Assembly: GCA_041600755.1 (NCBI GenBank)
Contig: JBFIJL010000004.1
Location: 10,612-74,611 of the forward strand
Length of the DNA: 64,000 nucleotides
Origin: Candidatus Saccharimonadales bacterium
GTDB taxonomy: Bacteria > Patescibacteriota > Saccharimonadia > Saccharimonadales > JAXHNE01
Direction: 5' to 3'
The translations under genes were made by a program, and so were the position numbers. Of this stretch, positions 5,388 to 23,885 are shown one piece after another. The notes under the pieces were generated by a model. That model was not told where the DNA came from. It made no database searches and saw nothing but the letters and a program-made list of their open reading frames with translations. Position 1 is the first letter of the stretch; each line of letters begins with the position of its first letter.

Positions 5388-5466
5388 CGTATTTCAGGAA
5401 AGAGCAGCACTAATGAAGCTTACTTCATTAGTGCGATGAGAAAACCTATCTCGGTTTTCTCATATT

Positions 5467-5840
5467 GTTAGGCTACCTATAAGCCGGGTTCTGTACCCCG
5501 CTCTACCTTCTTTTTTCAAAAAGATAAAGCGGGGCGTCGATCATCTATCTAGTTCTATCGTTGCCAATAGAATCAAGCGGATCTTGTGATGCTACCGAGA
5601 CGGGACGCCATATTCGATAACACCTCCTTGCAGCCGACAGGGTTTACCTCCCCCGCACGTCACCGTGAAGGGCTGTGAGCTCTTACCTCACTCGTTTCAC
5701 CTTTACTACCGAAGTAGTAGTTTCGTTTCTGTGGCACTTTCCCTAGAGTTTCCTCTGGTTGCCGTTAGCAACTGTCGTTCCCTATGCTGCCCGGACTTTC
5801 CTCCCGCAATAAATTGCAGGCGATCGACCAGCAACCTAAC
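5467..5840 (-). ncRNA. rnpB: RNase P RNA (bacterial type A-like)
   Basis: The minus strand reads GAGGAAAGUCCGGGC (CR-I), GGGAAAGUGCCACAGAAA, GGUGAAACGAGUGAGGUAAGAGCUCACAG and the 3' ACAGAACCCGGCUUAU. All closely parallel E. coli M1 RNA. The P1 helix gttaggttgct/aggtagcctaac defines the ends (~374 nt). Confidence 0.85.
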
Positions 5841-11252: not shown

Positions 11253-13097
11253 TCATAACGAGCTTTTTGTAGTGCGGGATTTTGCTTCATTGGAAACTGA
11301 CCGCAAAAAATCCTCAACTTTCTGGTGTGCATGGCTTGGCTGCACCTCAATATCTTTGCGTACGCGCGGTGTCACCTCGCCAGACTCAATCTCTTTTTCA
11401 CCTAGAACTAAGGTATACGGCACCTTCATGACCTCTGCATTACGGATTTTCTTGCCGACAGATTCATTGGCGTTATCGATAGTCACTCGAAGCCCCAGTT
11501 CCTTGGCCTGAGCGGCAACGCTATCGGCAAATGCAACTGTTTCATCCTCTTGATTGACGGTAATTATTCGAACCTGCTCTGGCGCAACCCACACCGGAAA
11601 CTTCCCAGCGGTATGTTCGATATAGACAGACAGGAACCGCTCAATAGAACCAAGTAGCGCACAGTGAATCATGATTGGGCGCTGAACCGAGCCATCTTCA
11701 CCTACATACTCAAGCTCAAATCTCTCGGGCTGCACGAAGTCCAATTGAACAGTGGCGACCTGATGCTCGCGTCCGATCGCATCGGTTGCCATGAAGTCAA
11801 TTTTTGGCCCGTAAAACGCCGCTTCACCCTCTTCTTCAAAGTAATCTAATCCGTTCTTGAGCACAGCAGCCTTAAGCTGCGACTGCGCTTTATTCCACAG
11901 ACTTTCATCACCTAAATAGCCATCCGATGCATCGCGATAACTAAGCCGTACTTTCAAATTCATATCGACGGTTTTGTACAAATCGCCGGCAGCGGCAAGC
12001 AACCCATCCATCTCCTGTTCTATCTGGTCTTCTCTACAAAACACATGACTATCATCCTGCGTTAAGGCGCGCACACGATTCAGCCCACCAAGCTCGCCCG
12101 ACTTTTCATCTCTGTAATCTGTAGTTGTTTCCAGATACCTAACGGGGAGATCGCGGTAGCTCTTGGGCTGGAAGGCAAAAATTCTGGTGTGATGCGGACA
12201 GTTCATTGGTTTTAGGACAAAATCATCAGATGATTCCTGGCTTTTAACCAAAAATAACTCATCACCAAACTTAGACCAATGTCCACTGGCTTCATATAGT
12301 TCTTTTTTTGTAATGTTTGGCGTCCACACCTTTTCAAAACCCGACCGCTCTCTGAGCTCATTTGAATATCTTGATAGCTCTTCTCTGAGCACTGTTCCTC
12401 TTGGTGTAAACATCGGCAAACCTGATCCCACGAGGTCAGAGAACAAGAATAAATCCAGCTCTTGGCCAAGCTTGCGGTGGTCGCGCTTTTTAGCTTCTTC
12501 AAGCATCTCAAGATGTTTTCTGAGCTCCTTCGGTGAATCAAACGCCACACCATACAATCGCTGCATCTGCGCGTTTTTTTCATTGCCTCGCCAGTAAGCT
12601 CCAGCTATGCGCATCAACTTAAATGCTCCAACTTTATTGGTGGATTCTACGTGCGGACCACGACATAGATCAGCAAAATCACCGTTGGTATAGAACGAAA
12701 CTTCGTCAAGCGCGCTATCGCCATCAGTTATAGTGCCCAGCTCATCGGCATCCAGATCTTTAGCAACCGTTGTACCAGCGCGCTTCAGATCGTTGAGCAA
12801 CTCCTCTTTATATGGCTGACCAGATTCTTGCGCCCATGCAATGGCCTCATCTATCGGCTTGGTAGAACGCACAAACTGCTTCCCTTCTTTGATGATATTC
12901 TGCATTTCGGCTTCAATCTTCTCAAAATCGTCTTCAGAAATGGTCACATCACCAGCGTCAATATCGTAATAAAAACCGTGCTCTACCACTGGACCAACGC
13001 CCAGTTTCACTCCTGGCCAAAGCCGAGTAACGGCCGTTGCCATAATATGAGCCAAAGAGTGTCTCATTGCGTGTAAGTTATCTTGATTTTGAGCCAT
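11253..13097 (-). CDS. thrS: threonine--tRNA ligase (no N-terminal TGS domain)
   Basis: MRHSLAHIMA (editing-domain HxxxH), class II motifs (FRDE-like YRDEKSGEL, GLNRVRALTQDDSH) and an anticodon-binding C-terminus. Start set at ATG 13097, after GAGGAG. Confidence 0.92.
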   Translation of the reverse strand: MAQNQDNLHAMRHSLAHIMATAVTRLWPGVKLGVGPVVEHGFYYDIDAGDVTISEDDFEKIEAEMQNIIKEGKQFVRSTKPIDEAIAWAQESGQPYKEELLNDLKRAGTTVAKDLDADELGTITDGDSALDEVSFYTNGDFADLCRGPHVESTNKVGAFKLMRIAGAYWRGNEKNAQMQRLYGVAFDSPKELRKHLEMLEEAKKRDHRKLGQELDLFLFSDLVGSGLPMFTPRGTVLREELSRYSNELRERSGFEKVWTPNITKKELYEASGHWSKFGDELFLVKSQESSDDFVLKPMNCPHHTRIFAFQPKSYRDLPVRYLETTTDYRDEKSGELGGLNRVRALTQDDSHVFCREDQIEQEMDGLLAAAGDLYKTVDMNLKVRLSYRDASDGYLGDESLWNKAQSQLKAAVLKNGLDYFEEEGEAAFYGPKIDFMATDAIGREHQVATVQLDFVQPERFELEYVGEDGSVQRPIMIHCALLGSIERFLSVYIEHTAGKFPVWVAPEQVRIITVNQEDETVAFADSVAAQAKELGLRVTIDNANESVGKKIRNAEVMKVPYTLVLGEKEIESGEVTPRVRKDIEVQPSHAHQKVEDFLRSVSNEAKSRTTKSSL

Positions 13098-13112
13098 TTC
13101 GCTTCTCCTCTT

Positions 13113-13271
13113 TAAAATAAAAAACACATAAGTAGCTTTACTTATGTGCACCTGGGTCGAAGACTGTTCTACGACGGTTCCACCGGCTGCATTCACTTAC
13201 GACTCATTGGTTATCGTACCTCTGTCGTCACGCCTACGAAGCTCAGTAGTTGGTAGCTACTTCATTGCTTA
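13113..13271 (-). promoter_or_regulatory. candidate T-box leader (short Stem I form) with intrinsic terminator
   Basis: The minus strand has GCAGCCGGUGGAACCGUCG (13190..13172), resembling the T-box AGGGUGGUACCGCG core with a UGGA bulge. Two ACCA (Thr codon + A) motifs lie in upstream hairpin loops (ACC at 13254..13252 and 13211..13209). Terminator cacataagta/tacttatgtg plus a U-run lies at 13148..13113. Confidence 0.5.
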
Positions 13272-13303: not shown

Positions 13304-13513
13304 CTACGATAATTTACTCCTTTCTCCAAACGCCAACCTTATTACTCCAGCTATAACCACCGCTACAGTCACCAAGGCTAGACTTATCCCTGTTTGGTGA
13401 CTCAACTTACCGATAGCATCTAACCCTAGCAAAATCATCCAAACCGGCAGCAAGCCAGTAATAAGTCCAAGAAACAGATAAGGAAAGTTGTGATTTTGCT
13501 GATTTTTTGACAT
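13304..13513 (-). CDS. small membrane protein (69 aa), hypothetical
   Basis: From ATG 13513: MSKNQQNHNFPYLFLGLITGLLPVWMILLGL...VTVAVVIAGVI, two hydrophobic helices. The longer 117-aa version has an implausible N-terminus. Confidence 0.35.
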   Translation of the reverse strand: MSKNQQNHNFPYLFLGLITGLLPVWMILLGLDAIGKLSHQTGISLALVTVAVVIAGVIRLAFGERSKLS

Positions 13514-13780
13514 ACAGCGACCATCATAACCGAAGTTAACAGAAATAAAAAGAGGGTTCAAATGATCTCGCAATTCATTTGAACCCTGCCCATCCTGGAG
13601 AAAACCTCTCCCAAAAACCCGTCTCACTTCGTTGATTGGCCGCTCATTGCCGATCAACGTACAACTATCTTAGCATACTAGTACTATCATGCTAGCACTT
13701 TATTATTGTTATGATTACACCAGCGCCTGGGGATAGTTTCTGGGCTAACAAAAAATCCACCGCTCTGGATGGGTTTATAC

Positions 13781-13799
13781 TGGTGGGCTCGGAGGAACT
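13781..13799 (-). repeat. exact 19-nt copy of the 3' end of tRNA-Val (AGUUCCUCCGAGCCCACCA)
   Basis: tggtgggctcggaggaact at 13781-13799 is identical to 13970-13988, the 3' terminus of the intact tRNA-Val. Confidence 0.85.
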
Positions 13800-13969
13800 T
13801 GACCTACGTTCCGCAGGCCCGAAACTTCTGCTATGAAAGCAAGCTTTCAAGTGAAGATTTCCTTGCAAACTGCCGCTGGCAGTTCTCACCCAACCTCCTT
13901 GGGGTCGGTGATTCGACTCACAACTGATCATGCAAAGCAAAAACTCACCGCTTGGGTGAGTTTTTGCTT

Positions 13970-14046
13970 TGGTGGGCTCGGAGGAACTCGAATCCCCGAC
14001 CTCCTCAACGTCAATGAGGCGCTCTAGCCAACTGAGCTACGAGCCC
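13970..14046 (-). tRNA. tRNA-Val (anticodon GAC), CCA encoded
   Basis: Manual cloverleaf: GGGCUCG/CGAGCCC acceptor, GCUC..GAGC D arm, CCUCA-UUGACGU-UGAGG anticodon arm, GGGGA-UUCGAGU-UCCUC T arm, A73-CCA. Confidence 0.9.
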
Positions 14047-14132
14047 TTGCGGTGGGTCTCGTACCACAGTGGTGACCGCCTAGCGCAGACTATTACTTCT
14101 ACGGCGAGCTGTCCCAACTGAGCTACGAGCCC
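14047..14132 (-). pseudogene. degenerate tRNA-Val-like sequence (shares the first 19 nt with tRNA-Val; no foldable T arm)
   Basis: Starts GGGCUCGUAGCUCAGUUGG, identical to tRNA-Val (14114-14132 = 14028-14046), and ends CGAGaCCCACC. The interior offers only a 5-bp UCGCC/GGCGG stem around 22 nt, and 14 nt where the variable loop and T arm should be. Confidence 0.4.
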
Positions 14133-14173
14133 ATATTCAACAGATAAAACTATATCTTATTTCCTCTGTTAGC

Positions 14174-15259
14174 TCAAGAGTTGCGATATTCTTCGGTTAT
14201 GCGGTTTAGGTATCGGATGTTATGGATGCTGGCTAGAGATCCGGCCAGACTTTCACCAATCTTGAACTGATGACGCAAGAAGCCGCGCGTAAAGCCATCG
14301 TTACACGTCGCACAATCACAACCTTCGTCAATTGGGCCAGTATCCTCGGCCAATGTTGCGATAGAAAGATTTAACCGCTTGTCTCCAGCAAGCCAGACCG
14401 CACTATGTCGTGCATTTCGTGTTGGCAATACGCAATCCATCATGTCAATTCCATGCTCGATTGCAAACCGCACATCGACTGGATCGCCAACACCCATCAA
14501 ATAGTGCACTTTGGTTGCGTTATATAATGGCGCCAAAAACTCTAGCATGTCATGCATCTCCTCACGCGTTTCGCCAACTGACAATCCACCAATTGCAACA
14601 CCATCAACATCGCGCGACTGCACAAGCTCAAGGCTTTTTTGCCGCAAATCTTTGTCTAGTCCTCCTTGTGCAATACCAAACAAAAGTGGCCTGGTTTCAT
14701 CCGTCATATCTGCCGTCAACCGCTTGAACTCAGCAATACAGCGGTCTAGCCAGCGATGTGTTCGCTCAAGAGCCTCCACTGTACGCGCGCGGCCAACTTG
14801 ATCAAGACTAACCACATCATCAAAAGCCATAATAATATCACTACCCAGGTCAATCTGAATCTGCATGGACTTCTCTGGGGTGAGCGTAATTAAATCACCA
14901 GTTCGTGGATCTTTGAAAGTTACACCTTCCTCGGTGATTTTGTTCATGTGCGCCAATGAAAACACCTGAAAGCCCCCAGAATCGGTCAGAATTGGACCCT
15001 TCCAGCGCGTAAATTCATGCAATCCGCCAAGAGCTTTTACGGCCTTTTCTCCAGGCTGAAGATGTAAATGATAAGTGTTTCCAAGAATGATTTGCGAGCC
15101 TGCAGCCCGAACCACGTCCGGATGTAGACCCTTTACCGCCCCGCGCGTCCCAACTGGCATGAATACCGGTGTATGCACCTCACCTGCCCGGGTTTTCAGG
15201 GTGCCACTTCGAACGCCATTAACTTCCTTAAGTAGAGTAAACATCTGTTTCATCAACAC
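14174..15259 (-). CDS. tgt: queuine tRNA-ribosyltransferase
   Basis: HTPVFMPVGT, LGNTYHL, DSGGFQ and the Zn site CDCATC...H are all typical Tgt. Confidence 0.92.
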   Translation of the reverse strand: MLMKQMFTLLKEVNGVRSGTLKTRAGEVHTPVFMPVGTRGAVKGLHPDVVRAAGSQIILGNTYHLHLQPGEKAVKALGGLHEFTRWKGPILTDSGGFQVFSLAHMNKITEEGVTFKDPRTGDLITLTPEKSMQIQIDLGSDIIMAFDDVVSLDQVGRARTVEALERTHRWLDRCIAEFKRLTADMTDETRPLLFGIAQGGLDKDLRQKSLELVQSRDVDGVAIGGLSVGETREEMHDMLEFLAPLYNATKVHYLMGVGDPVDVRFAIEHGIDMMDCVLPTRNARHSAVWLAGDKRLNLSIATLAEDTGPIDEGCDCATCNDGFTRGFLRHQFKIGESLAGSLASIHNIRYLNRITEEYRNS

Positions 15260-18301: not shown

Positions 18302-18378
18302 GGGCCCGTGGTGTAGTGGCCTAACATGCCTCCCTGTCACGGAGGAGATCGCCGGTTCAAATCCGGTCGGGCCCGCCA
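18302..18378 (+). tRNA. tRNA-Asp (anticodon GUC), G73, CCA encoded
   Basis: GGGCCCG/CGGGCCC acceptor, CCUCC-CUGUCAC-GGAGG anticodon arm, GCCGG-UUCAAAU-CCGGU T arm. An upstream TTGATT-17-TATGCT promoter with extended TG lies at 18241-18269. Confidence 0.92.
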
Positions 18379-18386
18379 AATCAAGG

Positions 18387-18409
18387 AACCATCGCCAGGA
18401 TGGTTTTTT
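18387..18409 (+). terminator. intrinsic terminator after tRNA-Asp
   Basis: aaccatc/gatggtt stem followed by TTTTTT. Confidence 0.65.
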
Positions 18410-18497
18410 AATTTGACGCTTCTTGAGGAGTTCTGGACCGGATAGCTGCAAAGCGACCCGGGCCAATTGAAAAAATTCTGTCGAACTACCTCTTTGT

Positions 18498-18623
18498 TTA
18501 TAAAGGATTTATTACAATTCCCAATCCGGTCGGGCAATAAACTGTTCCATTTTTATGTCCAGTAGGGTTACCAGATTGACCAGGCTTCCAGGATTTTAGG
18601 TTTTTGTATTTTTTGTTATTCAT
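18498..18623 (-). pseudogene. truncated remnant of a phage/ICE-type small protein (KPGQSGNPxG N-terminal motif)
   Basis: From ATG 18623: MNNKKYKNLKSWKPGQSGNPTGHKNG... I recall this motif from DUF5681-type mobile-element proteins (memory, not a search). Coding sense is lost where the 13-nt tRNA-Asp fragment copy sits (18523-18535). Confidence 0.3.
18523..18535 (+). repeat. 13-nt copy of the tRNA-Asp T-arm/acceptor segment (aatccggtcgggc)
   Basis: Identical to 18360-18372 inside tRNA-Asp. Confidence 0.6.
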
Positions 18624-21869: not shown

Positions 21870-22165
21870 CTGGAGCATCTGATTAGCGAAGCAAGGAAAA
21901 CTCAAACAGCCACAGGCTGTTTTCGCCTTTCGGTTCGACTCATGAAAGAACAAAAGCCGACAATACGTCTGTACTATCAGCTTTTGGTGCCCCGGGTAAG
22001 AGTCGACTAAAGATGCTCACTCGAATGCTAAAGCATCTCGTTCGGCCAAGCAAGGAAAACTCAAACAGCCACAGGCTGTTTTCGCCTTTCGGTTCGACTC
22101 ATGAAAGAACAAAAGCCGACAATACGTCTGTACTATCAGCTTTTGGTGCCCCGGGTAAGAGTCGA
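21870..22165. repeat. tandem direct repeat (unit 159 bp; 117 bp identical) that includes the last 22 nt of tRNA-Arg
   Basis: 21890-22006 equals 22049-22165 (gcaaggaaaactcaaacagcc...tggtgccccgggtaagagtcga). Similarity continues, diverged, about 20 nt further left in both copies. Confidence 0.85.
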
Positions 22166-22219
22166 ACCTACAACCTTCTCCTTAGGACGGAGCTGCTCTA
22201 TCCATTGAGCTACCGAGGC
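22144..22219 (-). tRNA. tRNA-Arg (anticodon CCU), CCA encoded
   Basis: GCCUCGG/CCGGGGC acceptor, GCUC-AAUGGAUA-GAGC D arm, anticodon loop GUCCUAA, GUAGG-UUCGACU-CUUAC T arm, A73-CCA. G32 and a G27-A43 mismatch are slightly atypical. Confidence 0.85.
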
Positions 22220-22354
22220 ATGATTGTGAACACTTTAAGTTTACTTACTTTTATAGCTCAATGATAGAGCTGCTCATTCTTTATTTTGCAACGAGGTTGC
22301 GCCACTTTCGCTACCGAGGCAAATGTGGCTGCATTTCTGCAGCCACAAAAATAA

Positions 22355-22885: not shown

Positions 22886-22961
22886 GAATTTTCCTTGTTT
22901 ACGTTAACGACATTCTAACAGATAGCGCACGCTATTTGCTAGTGTGTCGTACAATATAAGC

Positions 22962-23885
22962 ATGAGCAACCCATCATCGTTTGCAAAACTAAAAACTGAC
23001 TATCTCGAACATATGGAAATTGAGCAAAACCGCTCAAATAAAACAATTGAAAATTATGACCACTATTTGAATCGTCTTATCGATTTTGCTGGAGATATTT
23101 CAGTGTCAGATATCAACCAAGAACTTATACGCAAATGGAGATTGTGGCTCAATAGACTCGGCACCAACACAAGCGATGAACTTAAAAAGTCTACTCAAAA
23201 TTACCATCTCATTGCTCTGCGCGGCTTTTTGAAATATTGCGCAAAACGAGACATCACCGTCATGCAGCCTGATAAAATTGAGCTTGCACGGGTTGTGCGC
23301 AAGCAAGTAACCTTTCTAACCCCAGAAGAAGTAGAAAGACTTCTTAGTCAGGCAGATTTAAGTAAATTATCAGGGGTCAGAGATCGCGCCATTCTTGAAC
23401 TACTATTTAGTTCAGGCTTGCGTGTTTCGGAGCTTGTTGGACTGGATAGAGACCACGTAAATCTCAAACGCCGTGAGTTCATGGTTCGCGGAAAGGGCCA
23501 AAAGGATCGGCCAATATTTATTAGCGAGTCTGCTGCCCGATGGATTGAGGTGTACTTAGAAAAAAGACAAGATACGGCCAAGCCGTTGTTCATTAGATAC
23601 TCTGGCAGTAAAAAAGTAGATACCAGCGGAAACTTTCATCGCCTCACGGCCCGCAGTATCCAGCGCATGGTAAAGCGCTACGGTTTACTTGCTGGCATAA
23701 CCAAACATGTTAGCCCACACACACTACGACACTCGTTTGCCACAGACCTACTTATGAACGGAGCTGATTTGCGCAGCGTGCAAGCGATGCTTGGCCACAG
23801 CAACATTGCCACCACGCAAATTTATACACACGTCACCGACCCACATCTCAAATCTGTTCACGAAAAATTTCACAAATCCCAATAG
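22962..23885 (+). CDS. tyrosine recombinase, XerC/XerD family
   Basis: N-terminal core-binding domain (IENYDHYLNRL), catalytic R...HxxR...Y (LRHSFATDLL, GHSNIATTQIYTHV). Start set at ATG 22962. Confidence 0.85.
   Translation: MSNPSSFAKLKTDYLEHMEIEQNRSNKTIENYDHYLNRLIDFAGDISVSDINQELIRKWRLWLNRLGTNTSDELKKSTQNYHLIALRGFLKYCAKRDITVMQPDKIELARVVRKQVTFLTPEEVERLLSQADLSKLSGVRDRAILELLFSSGLRVSELVGLDRDHVNLKRREFMVRGKGQKDRPIFISESAARWIEVYLEKRQDTAKPLFIRYSGSKKVDTSGNFHRLTARSIQRMVKRYGLLAGITKHVSPHTLRHSFATDLLMNGADLRSVQAMLGHSNIATTQIYTHVTDPHLKSVHEKFHKSQ

Follow-up and report, generated by a model that had tools for sequence, protein, structure and literature searches.

At many integrase sites in tRNA genes, the crossover is sublocated to the T-loop. 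Folded single-strand attachment (att) sites are known from the CTX-phi attP(+) used by XerCD and from integron attC, and small non-autonomous repeats include the Rickettsia palindromic elements and cis-mobilisable elements, which have att sites and lack an integrase. Related arrangements have been described as tycheposons, which are islands with partial-tRNA arrays (10.1101/2020.12.28.424599), as miniature elements of the REPIN/MITE type (PMC3116915), and in the disrupted, intron-containing and split tRNA genes of archaea, for which there is a mobile-element model (PMC3293823). Here a 64-kb stretch of a Saccharibacteria genome (64,000 nt of contig JBFIJL010000004.1; hereafter the window) was analysed, in which an intact tRNA-Val(GAC) gene is bracketed by exact copies of its own two ends. 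We tentatively favour reading the bracket as two members, one upstream (U) and one downstream (D), of a family of non-autonomous, non-coding, hairpin-rich insertion cassettes inside Saccharibacteria tRNA transcription units. The family is apparently undescribed so far.

The window belongs to the Saccharibacteria (TM7, Saccharimonadales), and the 45 best relatives of the adjoining tgt gene were nearly all from metagenome-assembled genomes of the same group. Related contigs that were compared with the window locus are referred to by L numbers (for example L001). The gene order on the minus strand is tgt (15259..14174), tRNA-Val(GAC) and thrS (13196..11253), and the coordinates of all features discussed below are given in Table 1. 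An original prediction, made from the letters of the sequence, had claimed exact 19-nt copies of the tRNA-Val ends on both sides of the intact gene, and both copies were confirmed. The 3' copy extends to 22 nt with one mismatch. Each terminal 19-mer has exactly two matches in the 64 kb, even when three mismatches are allowed, compared with an expectation of 0.00 from shuffled sequences. ARAGORN and Rfam called tRNA-Val as the sole tRNA of the locus; neither 14132..14047, which had been predicted to be unable to form a T arm, nor 13969..13781 gave a tRNA call with ARAGORN or a match to RF00005 or any other Rfam family, even at E<=10. The repeat of the 3' end is direct, exact over 19 nt and has a period of 189 bp with the tRNA left intact, as in an att-type repeat. 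A separate Logan assembly (SRR29257383) matched base for base from tgt through the upstream piece to nt 35 of the tRNA, so the upstream copy is not an artefact of binning or assembly.

The upstream piece was found to be a module of 86 nt, consisting of a direct copy of tRNA nt 1–19, a 41-nt core and an inverted copy of nt 1–19, and folding as a rod (−39.4 kcal/mol, z −3.8 relative to shuffles). It is positioned between the tRNA promoter and tRNA-Val. Since a promoter-like site lies upstream of U, and the corresponding cTATAGT...tctgtt motif directly abuts tRNA-Val in the U-less relatives L216, L217, L220, L033 and L044, U is probably transcribed as a 5' leader. Homologous U cores were identified at tRNA-Val (L001, L219, L212 and L081), at tRNA-Thr (L213) and at the tRNA-Arg gene of the window.

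The downstream module comprises 189 nt (13969..13781): a hairpin terminator (T1), an inverted copy of the T-arm, a 91-nt structured core and a copy of tRNA nt 59–77, after which a second terminator (T2) follows. The whole piece folds far better than shuffles (−71.4 kcal/mol, z −3.95), as had been expected for the 170-nt segment ending in the 3' copy. The hairpin terminator predicted behind the tRNA is a perfect 17-bp inverted repeat (13933-13949 / 13955-13971), and the small second terminator predicted after the 3' copy was recovered as a terminator-like site at 13772..13757. By its position, T2 appears to be the ancestral tRNA terminator. T1 and T2 are related, with a local alignment score of 17 compared with 4–13 for terminator pairs of different loci, and the duplicated unit is thus really the 3' end plus terminator. 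(The first similarity metric used for the terminators was uninformative, shuffles scoring about 0.75, and was replaced by local scores against cross-locus controls.) Three features go beyond what had been predicted: inverted copies of tRNA segments occur in both pieces, T2 is a diverged duplicate of T1, and the layout recurs at other tRNA genes. No promoter-like site for D was found in a scan of 13500-14300, and D lies behind a strong terminator. An 82-aa open reading frame (ORF) with an AAGGAGG-GUG start (13692..13940) was considered and rejected, being unconserved and broken by indels in L081 and L212; the D alignment contains 1-, 2- and 7-nt indels and no conserved ORF within the 189 bp.

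The same layout was found at three of the four tRNA genes in the window (Val, Arg and Asp), and all copies were located at tRNA genes. At tRNA-Arg(CCT), a 159-nt unit is repeated 1.6 times, the first 112 nt being 95.5% identical and the 3' halves diverged, which points to recent local recombination as the probable origin of the tandem. The cores of the two units were scored at 93.1 and 75.5 bits by covariance model R2. The tRNA-Asp gene carries a weaker version, and trailers resembling it were also seen in L020 and L040. In other Saccharibacteria, the layout was present at tRNA-Val, tRNA-Thr and tRNA-Asp genes. Among 116 Saccharibacteria tRNAs, 15 were followed within 450 nt by a copy of at least 12 nt of their own 3' end. 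Within the same loci, the reverse-direction controls gave 2/116 (3' end copied upstream) and 0/116 (5' end copied downstream), and the cross-locus control for downstream 3' copies was 1.2%. Only the 3' figures were used, as nearby tRNA genes with shared D-arm sequence inflate the cross-locus control of the 5' copies. The left boundary of the 3' copies fell at linear tRNA positions 53–60, in or at the edge of the T-loop, in 12 of 14 loci, and that of the 5' copies in the D-loop. Insert sizes were tightly clustered (156–189 bp), with a duplicated segment of 13–25 nt, often together with about 35 nt of terminator.

Table 1. Positions of the modules and their parts at tRNA-Val, tRNA-Arg and tRNA-Asp in the window
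Feature	Coordinates	Strand	Evidence
Promoter-like site TTGAGC-17-TATAGT	14149..14177	-	Sole sigma-70-like site in 13500-14300; precedes the 5' copy, not the tRNA directly
U: outer direct copy of tRNA-Val nt 1–19	14114..14132	-	Exact, 19/19
U: core with GCAGC/GCUGC-type small hairpin, A-rich stretch and GCGC...GGCG hairpin	14073..14113	-	Homologous in other U modules
U: imperfect inverted copy of nt 1–19, pairing with the outer copy into a rod	14054..14072	-	Folding; compensatory pairs
Spacer ACCGCAA (7 nt) between U rod and tRNA +1	14047..14053	-	Read from sequence
tRNA-Val(GAC), intact, CCA encoded	13970..14046	-	ARAGORN; Rfam, 66 bits
D: T1 hairpin terminator, first part of the 189-bp insertion	13935..13969	-	17-bp perfectly paired arms
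D: inverted copy of tRNA nt 46–62 (variable loop, T-stem 5' strand, T-loop)	13903..13919	-	Sequence; 14/17 identical
D: A-type core (hp1 13884..13868, rod 13862..13821, P4 13819..13801)	13801..13891	-	Covariance model R1, 106.7 bits
D: direct copy of nt 59–77 (T-loop end, T-stem 3' strand, acceptor 3' strand, ACCA)	13781..13799	-	Exact, 19/19
T2 second terminator	13750..13772	-	Terminator-like site; aligns with terminator behind the tRNA in L001
tRNA-Arg(CCT), inside bracket 21889..22320	22219..22144	-
tRNA-Arg upstream: 11-nt 5' copy; inverted D-arm copy	22320..22310; 22270..22254	-	Sequence
tRNA-Arg unit 1: terminator; inverted T-loop copy; B-type core	22143..22107; 22100..22091; 22086..22048	-	R2 model
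tRNA-Arg: 22-nt 3' copy	22006..21985	-	Sequence
tRNA-Arg unit 2: terminator; inverted copy; core	21984..21948; 21941..21932; 21927..21889	-	R2 model
tRNA-Asp, with the weaker version at 18385..18535	18302-18378	+	Sequence
tRNA-Asp: terminator; inverted T-stem/acceptor copy (8–10 nt); 13-nt 3' copy	18385-18409; 18435-18444; 18523-18535	+	Sequence

The terminal copies appear always to match the local tRNA allele. In L212, the acceptor stem of tRNA-Val differs (GGGCGAT / ATCGCCC), and the 5' copy is the exact 19-mer of this allele, GGGCGATTAGCTCAGCTGG. The inverted 5' copy and the 3' copy of L212 also track it, and three compensatory pairs in the U rod follow the allele change; across four sequences, 94% of cells in the rod are paired. 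Inverted copies match the local tRNA in L081 (18/18), L219 (13 nt), L216, L042 and the tRNA-Arg locus of the window. The downstream cores were of several types: type A at the tRNA-Val gene of the window, in L081 and L212 and in tandem units in L089; type B at the tRNA-Arg gene of the window and in L216, L219 and L042; type C in L220; and a short form in L214. The copy that terminates the B modules is of the tRNA-Arg 3' end in the window and of the tRNA-Val 3' end in L216, L219 and L042. The covariance model of type A weakly picks up type B modules over their full length, and vice versa, and nothing else was matched in 477 kb of Saccharibacteria DNA. Because of this full-length mutual detection, A and B are regarded as probable remote, collinear homologues within one family. 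Type B was also considered as an inverted type A, as GCAAGGAAA and its complement are common to both, but the order of elements is unlike that of an inversion and the cross-hits are collinear. A cassette would be best described as a generic structured core with tailored ends, namely a direct copy of a tRNA terminus outside and an inverted copy of the adjoining segment inside. The U type copies nt 1–19, with the boundary in the D-loop, and the D type copies roughly nt 53/60–77, with the boundary in the T-loop and usually with a terminator.

Presence and absence of the modules at tRNA-Val were compared at this one site in the clade with 77–85% tgt identity and in L220, just outside it at 70–75%. 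U together with a type A D module was present in the window and L212, and U together with a type B module in L219. L216 has a type B module without U, and L001 (tgt 79% identical, identical tRNA) has U without D. L217 has neither, L214 has the short D and L220 the type C module. In both L001 and L217, tRNA-Val directly precedes the orthologue of window position 13780 onward, and the flanks align base for base across these empty sites. The 189-bp D module is thus an insertion/deletion polymorphism whose limits coincide exactly with the direct repeat.

The modules are more conserved than would be expected of neutral sequence. Four-fold degenerate sites of tgt were 30–41% identical between the window and its relatives, which corresponds to saturation. 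By comparison, the A modules of L212 and L081 were 80–82% identical to that of the window, the B modules of L216 and L219 were 83% identical to each other, and the 43-nt B core was 97.7% identical between tRNA-Arg of the window and tRNA-Val of L216. Module identities of 80–83% between genomes whose synonymous sites are saturated argue that the modules are not neutral. In the A core, 12 of 27 pairs showed compensatory changes and 94.8% of cells were paired, a result reached by 0/500 shuffles, with at most 4 in slid controls; in the B core, covariation is likewise seen for hp1 and the apical hairpin. All 11 core hits were co-oriented with the tRNA, and the sense strand was more stable than the antisense strand by 2.7–12.6 kcal/mol in 14 of 15 sequences. 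The A core thus has the conserved structure, compensatory changes and strand specificity of a generic structured non-coding RNA, and the structure of the modules is likely to be under selection, folding on the tRNA strand.

The alignment of orthologous loci also showed which of the helices in the original prediction hold. Compensatory changes in homologues uphold both the 7-bp hairpin (13884..13868) and the rod (13862..13821), and the gcaagg/cctgc helix proposed to close the rod is absent from the consensus, its place being taken by the P4 hairpin GGCCUGCG/CGUAGGUC (13819..13801). The proposed GGGC...GCCC-ACCA minihelix is better drawn as a 7-bp helix GGUUGGGU/GCCCACC that would bury part of the ACCA, and in this form it is weakly supported. 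A T-arm mimic at the 3' end of D (CGUAGG/UCAAGUU/CCUCCG) was set aside, being perfect only in L212, with a loop off the T-loop consensus and with P4 preferred by RNAalifold.

Further observations were made at related loci. The orientation of tRNA-Val relative to tgt varied among L001-L045, with convergent genes in most loci and the same direction in about 9, and the distance to tgt ranged from 28 nt to >1.5 kb; this variation suggests that tRNA-Val is a rearrangement hot spot. In L089 (1755-2440), two paralogous arrays of about 190 nt, made of tandem A-type units, lie on either side of tRNA-Val. The upstream array is inside a tRNA-Val pseudogene consisting of nt 1–14, a hairpin in place of part of the D-loop, nt 19–26, the array and nt 29–44. 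The live tRNA-Val of L089 is enclosed by a 13-bp leader-trailer stem, CAGTTTGCTCTCG / CGAGAGCAAACT. Although the tgt gene of L089 shares only 57–61% identity with the window clade, the tRNA-Val allele of L089 is nearly that of the clade. Inverted partial 3' copies situated right behind the terminator, without a clear distal direct copy, were seen in L017 (tRNA-Val) and in L011 and L039 (tRNA-Asp), and the inverted copy in L017 is itself interrupted by a 24-nt hairpin.

In the window itself, a full-length bacterial RNase P RNA of class A was identified at 5464-5839 on the minus strand (249.6 bits). Within about 550 nt upstream of thrS, a block GGTGTAATCATAACAATAATAAAGT (13697-13721, minus strand) is invariant in six genomes with saturated synonymous sites. 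It is followed by ACTAGT palindromic repeats and, further on, by a strong hairpin-plus-U-run (13547-13587, minus strand). This region looks like a conserved leader or regulatory region and had no Rfam match, T-box included.

If the modules are insertion cassettes, entry and exit would take place by recombination in the duplicated tRNA segment, which would leave the tRNA intact on gain and a perfect empty site on loss. Spread or exchange between tRNA loci and lineages would involve a recombination activity supplied in trans, the cassettes encoding no protein. U would be transcribed with the tRNA and removed as a 5' leader by RNase P, and D would be a read-through trailer between two terminators. 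Selection for tight folding of the RNA strand may protect the real tRNA from mispairing with the extra tRNA-end copy or the complement of that copy. Consistent with a small dispersed element, copies occur at three loci in 64 kb and are patchy in the tgt clade; the common terminal inverted repeats and short fixed target duplication of MITE/REPIN elements are absent, the ends being local tRNA sequence.

Several points weigh against the cassette reading. No recombinase or transposase is associated with any cassette, and free, circular or element-borne copies of the cores were not found in viral contigs, phages or plasmids. The empty sites can equally have arisen by deletion between the repeats, so that insertion is only an inference, and a few losses plus a single replacement could account for the distribution on the tgt tree. 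Inverted copies and duplicated terminators are not predicted by standard integrase or transposase mechanisms. The core conservation (97.7% over 43 nt at different tRNAs) exceeds the need of harmless folding and hints at a sequence-specific function. The inverted copies, the co-duplication of the terminator and the near-invariant 43-nt core are left unexplained by the cassette model.

In a possible, though less probable, explanation, U and D are dedicated leader and trailer sequences or stand-alone RNAs for tRNA biogenesis or tRNA-end mimicry. The copies would then match the tRNA because function requires it, either in a fold switch or in an ACCA-ending D RNA bound by tRNA-processing or tRNA-binding proteins. 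The strong covariation and conservation, the sense-strand folding bias, and the strict co-orientation and position inside the tRNA transcription unit all fit such a role. In the window, the 3' copy has also stayed identical to the tRNA (19/19), whereas the duplicated terminator next to it is down to about 80%. In L212, the differences between the 3' copy and the tRNA make a 6-bp hairpin with a 7-nt loop perfect, and the 5' GGGCGAG of the copy can pair with GUCGCCC. Of the alternatives in the original prediction, that of a tRNA-end-mimicking RNA co-transcribed with tRNA-Val is upheld as to structure, strand and position, any expression or function being putative. Against a dedicated RNA, the modules are dispensable, as U is missing from L216, D from L001 and both from L217, all of them close relatives with the identical tRNA, and unrelated core types (A, B, C and short) occupy the same site. 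D has no evident promoter and lies behind a strong terminator, the acceptor-end-like helix is not conserved in B modules, and the L089 cores occur without any tRNA 3' end. There is nevertheless a substantial chance that the modules constitute a new tRNA-linked RNA family.

One specific form of this explanation is a decoy/anti-decoy switch, in which the inverted copies would pair either with the module's own copy, so that the tRNA matures, or with the real tRNA, so that the precursor is trapped in a 'giant tRNA' fold. The predicted fold of the full read-through transcript has the arrangement expected of such a switch, with the tRNA 5' acceptor strand paired to the distal, ACCA-ending copy, the T-arm paired to the inverted copy and the module hairpins intact. 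We consider the switch improbable.

Another improbable explanation is that the modules are remnants of larger integrative elements, such as phages or islands inserted at the T-loop and D-loop by a site-specific recombinase, with an att pair and conserved attP arms, and with recent derivation from circulating elements, rather than selection in place, accounting for the similarity between loci. The att-type scars proposed in the original prediction are of this kind and are borne out in part. The 3'-end direct repeats with a T-loop boundary and the exact, repeat-delimited empty sites in relatives are as expected of such remnants, and islands flanked by partial tRNAs are known elsewhere, for example tycheposons (10.1101/2020.12.28.424599). 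Islands next to tRNA genes also occur among the Saccharibacteria: in L232 (2795-6958), the 3' end of tRNA-Asp is overlapped by the gene of a large serine recombinase, beside ThsB-TIR and SLATT-domain genes. This looks like a tRNA-integrated defence island in a Saccharibacteria genome, and it carries no such modules.

Against remnants, no integrase or other recombinase adjoins any A or B core copy in the 477 kb of Saccharibacteria DNA, and no larger element or attP was found. The cores had no true match in 2.9 million viral contigs (IMG/VR), 50,697 GenBank phage records or 72,556 PLSDB plasmids, and distant-mode BLAST gave nothing against phages (189-nt and 159-nt units) or plasmids (189-nt unit only). 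Used as an attP probe, the 3' 19-mer had 0 matches in viral contigs; in metagenome contigs it was found at 11 loci, of which only L081 and L089 are tRNA-Val loci and the rest are chance matches in coding sequence. The insert sizes of 156–189 bp are clustered, unlike random deletion products, and the terminator is duplicated with the repeat, unlike in att recombination. Duplication of the 5' end together with an inverted copy is not among the known footprints of integrases. Orthologous A modules are 80% identical and covarying where neutral sites are saturated, and inert att scars are rejected because the modules are conserved and covarying.

Other candidates were also set aside. Core motifs matched viral contigs 120 times (GCAAGGAAATCTTC) and 7 times (GTTTTCCTTGCTTGGCC), in all cases by chance within genes as judged from context. 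The only tyrosine recombinase in the window (313 aa, 22944-23885, plus strand; 0.6 kb from the tRNA-Arg locus and divergent from ndk) was considered as a dedicated integrase, but its XerC/XerD/XerA-like scores indicate that it is probably the housekeeping chromosomal Xer. A retroelement primer-binding site was considered for the copies, which are about 18–19 nt from the tRNA 3' end, but they are in the sense rather than the antisense orientation and without a reverse transcriptase. With Rfam 15, no family reached the gathering threshold, and at relaxed thresholds too the result was negative, the Val locus, Arg locus, L089 arrays and thrS leader giving only tRNAs and chance-level matches. Full-text literature searches found no account of such modules in Saccharibacteria or Patescibacteria.

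Very unlikely, finally, is decay of tandem or inverted tRNA duplications whose ends are kept alike by gene conversion with the live copy: partial tRNA copies do occur in relatives (the 3' third of tRNA-Thr in L021, an inverted 3' part after the terminator in L017, and the 5' acceptor plus D arm and an anticodon-arm fragment in L089) and terminators are duplicated along with the 3' end, but identity drops abruptly from 100% to background at 19 nt rather than grading along the copy, nothing resembling a tRNA is seen in nt 1–58 of the putative copy, the sequence in between belongs to a conserved family also found beside tRNA-Arg, and 19 nt is very short for gene conversion, so that the decayed array of the original prediction is not retained.

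Saccharibacteria genomes are very small, yet several of their tRNA genes carry 250–300 extra bases that are conserved, covarying and tailored to the tRNA. If these are mobile cassettes, they are of an unusual kind, having no common ends and carrying a copy and an inverted copy of the individual target at both the 5' and 3' sides of the tRNA. They would also give a present-day bacterial view of how insertions at the D-loop, the T-loop and position 26/27 break or duplicate tRNA genes, so far mainly an archaeal question. If they are functional RNAs, they would form a new tRNA-linked RNA family with tRNA-end mimicry, and the decoy/anti-decoy switch, if true, would be a previously unknown, transferable control of individual tRNA maturation in reduced-genome bacteria. 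In practice, predictors of att sites and islands can be misled by the partial tRNA copies, and short-read assemblies can break at tRNA genes that carry them.

Compared with tRNA-targeting att systems, the modules are alike in the 3' direct repeat beginning in the T-loop, the intact tRNA, the precise empty site and the terminator right after the reconstituted tRNA. They differ in being 156–189 bp long and geneless, with no element-borne attP found and with a duplicated terminator, and further in the inverted T-arm copy, the mirror version at the tRNA 5' end, and the conservation and covariation. As in small non-autonomous repeats, they are short, non-coding, hairpin-forming, patchy, present in several copies per genome and often co-transcribed with their neighbours. 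They lack common terminal inverted repeats, however, their ends consisting of the individual tRNA, direct outside and inverted inside. Every core copy found lies in or beside a tRNA gene or tRNA-gene fragment, co-oriented with the intact tRNA, and the duplicated target (13–25 nt plus terminator) is far above usual target-site duplications.

The topology of direct copy, loop, inverted copy, cargo and direct copy would be the trace expected from integration of a target-mimicking hairpin, as with CTX-phi attP(+) and integron attC. The folding bias is likewise strand-specific, and an Xer-type enzyme is the only tyrosine recombinase in the window. In contrast to those systems, nothing in the modules points to a single-stranded intermediate, to Xer action at tRNA arms or to a replicon, and in D the inverted copy and the direct copy represent different parts of the tRNA and are not paired to one another. 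The tRNA-like domain of transfer-messenger RNA (tmRNA), YrlA and viral tRNA-like structures are resembled in that D ends in the T-stem 3' strand, acceptor 3' strand and ACCA, and in the cloverleaf-like four helices of the A core. The scores were nevertheless 15.7 bits for YrlA (Rfam threshold 69) and 16.5 bits for tmRNA (threshold 47), the latter only on an L089 fragment; the modules also lack a T-loop consensus, and their acceptor-like helix is a weak one that the B modules do not conserve.

The disrupted tRNA genes of archaea are similar in having insertions at the D-loop, at position 26/27 (as in L089) and at the T-loop, with partial tRNA copies around them. The hosts here are bacteria, for which we know of no splicing endonuclease, the live tRNA is never interrupted, and the copies are redundant rather than complementary halves. 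The modules are best filed as a variant of small tRNA-targeted non-autonomous elements under RNA-level structural constraint, a finding broader than the bracketed tRNA-Val gene of the original prediction.

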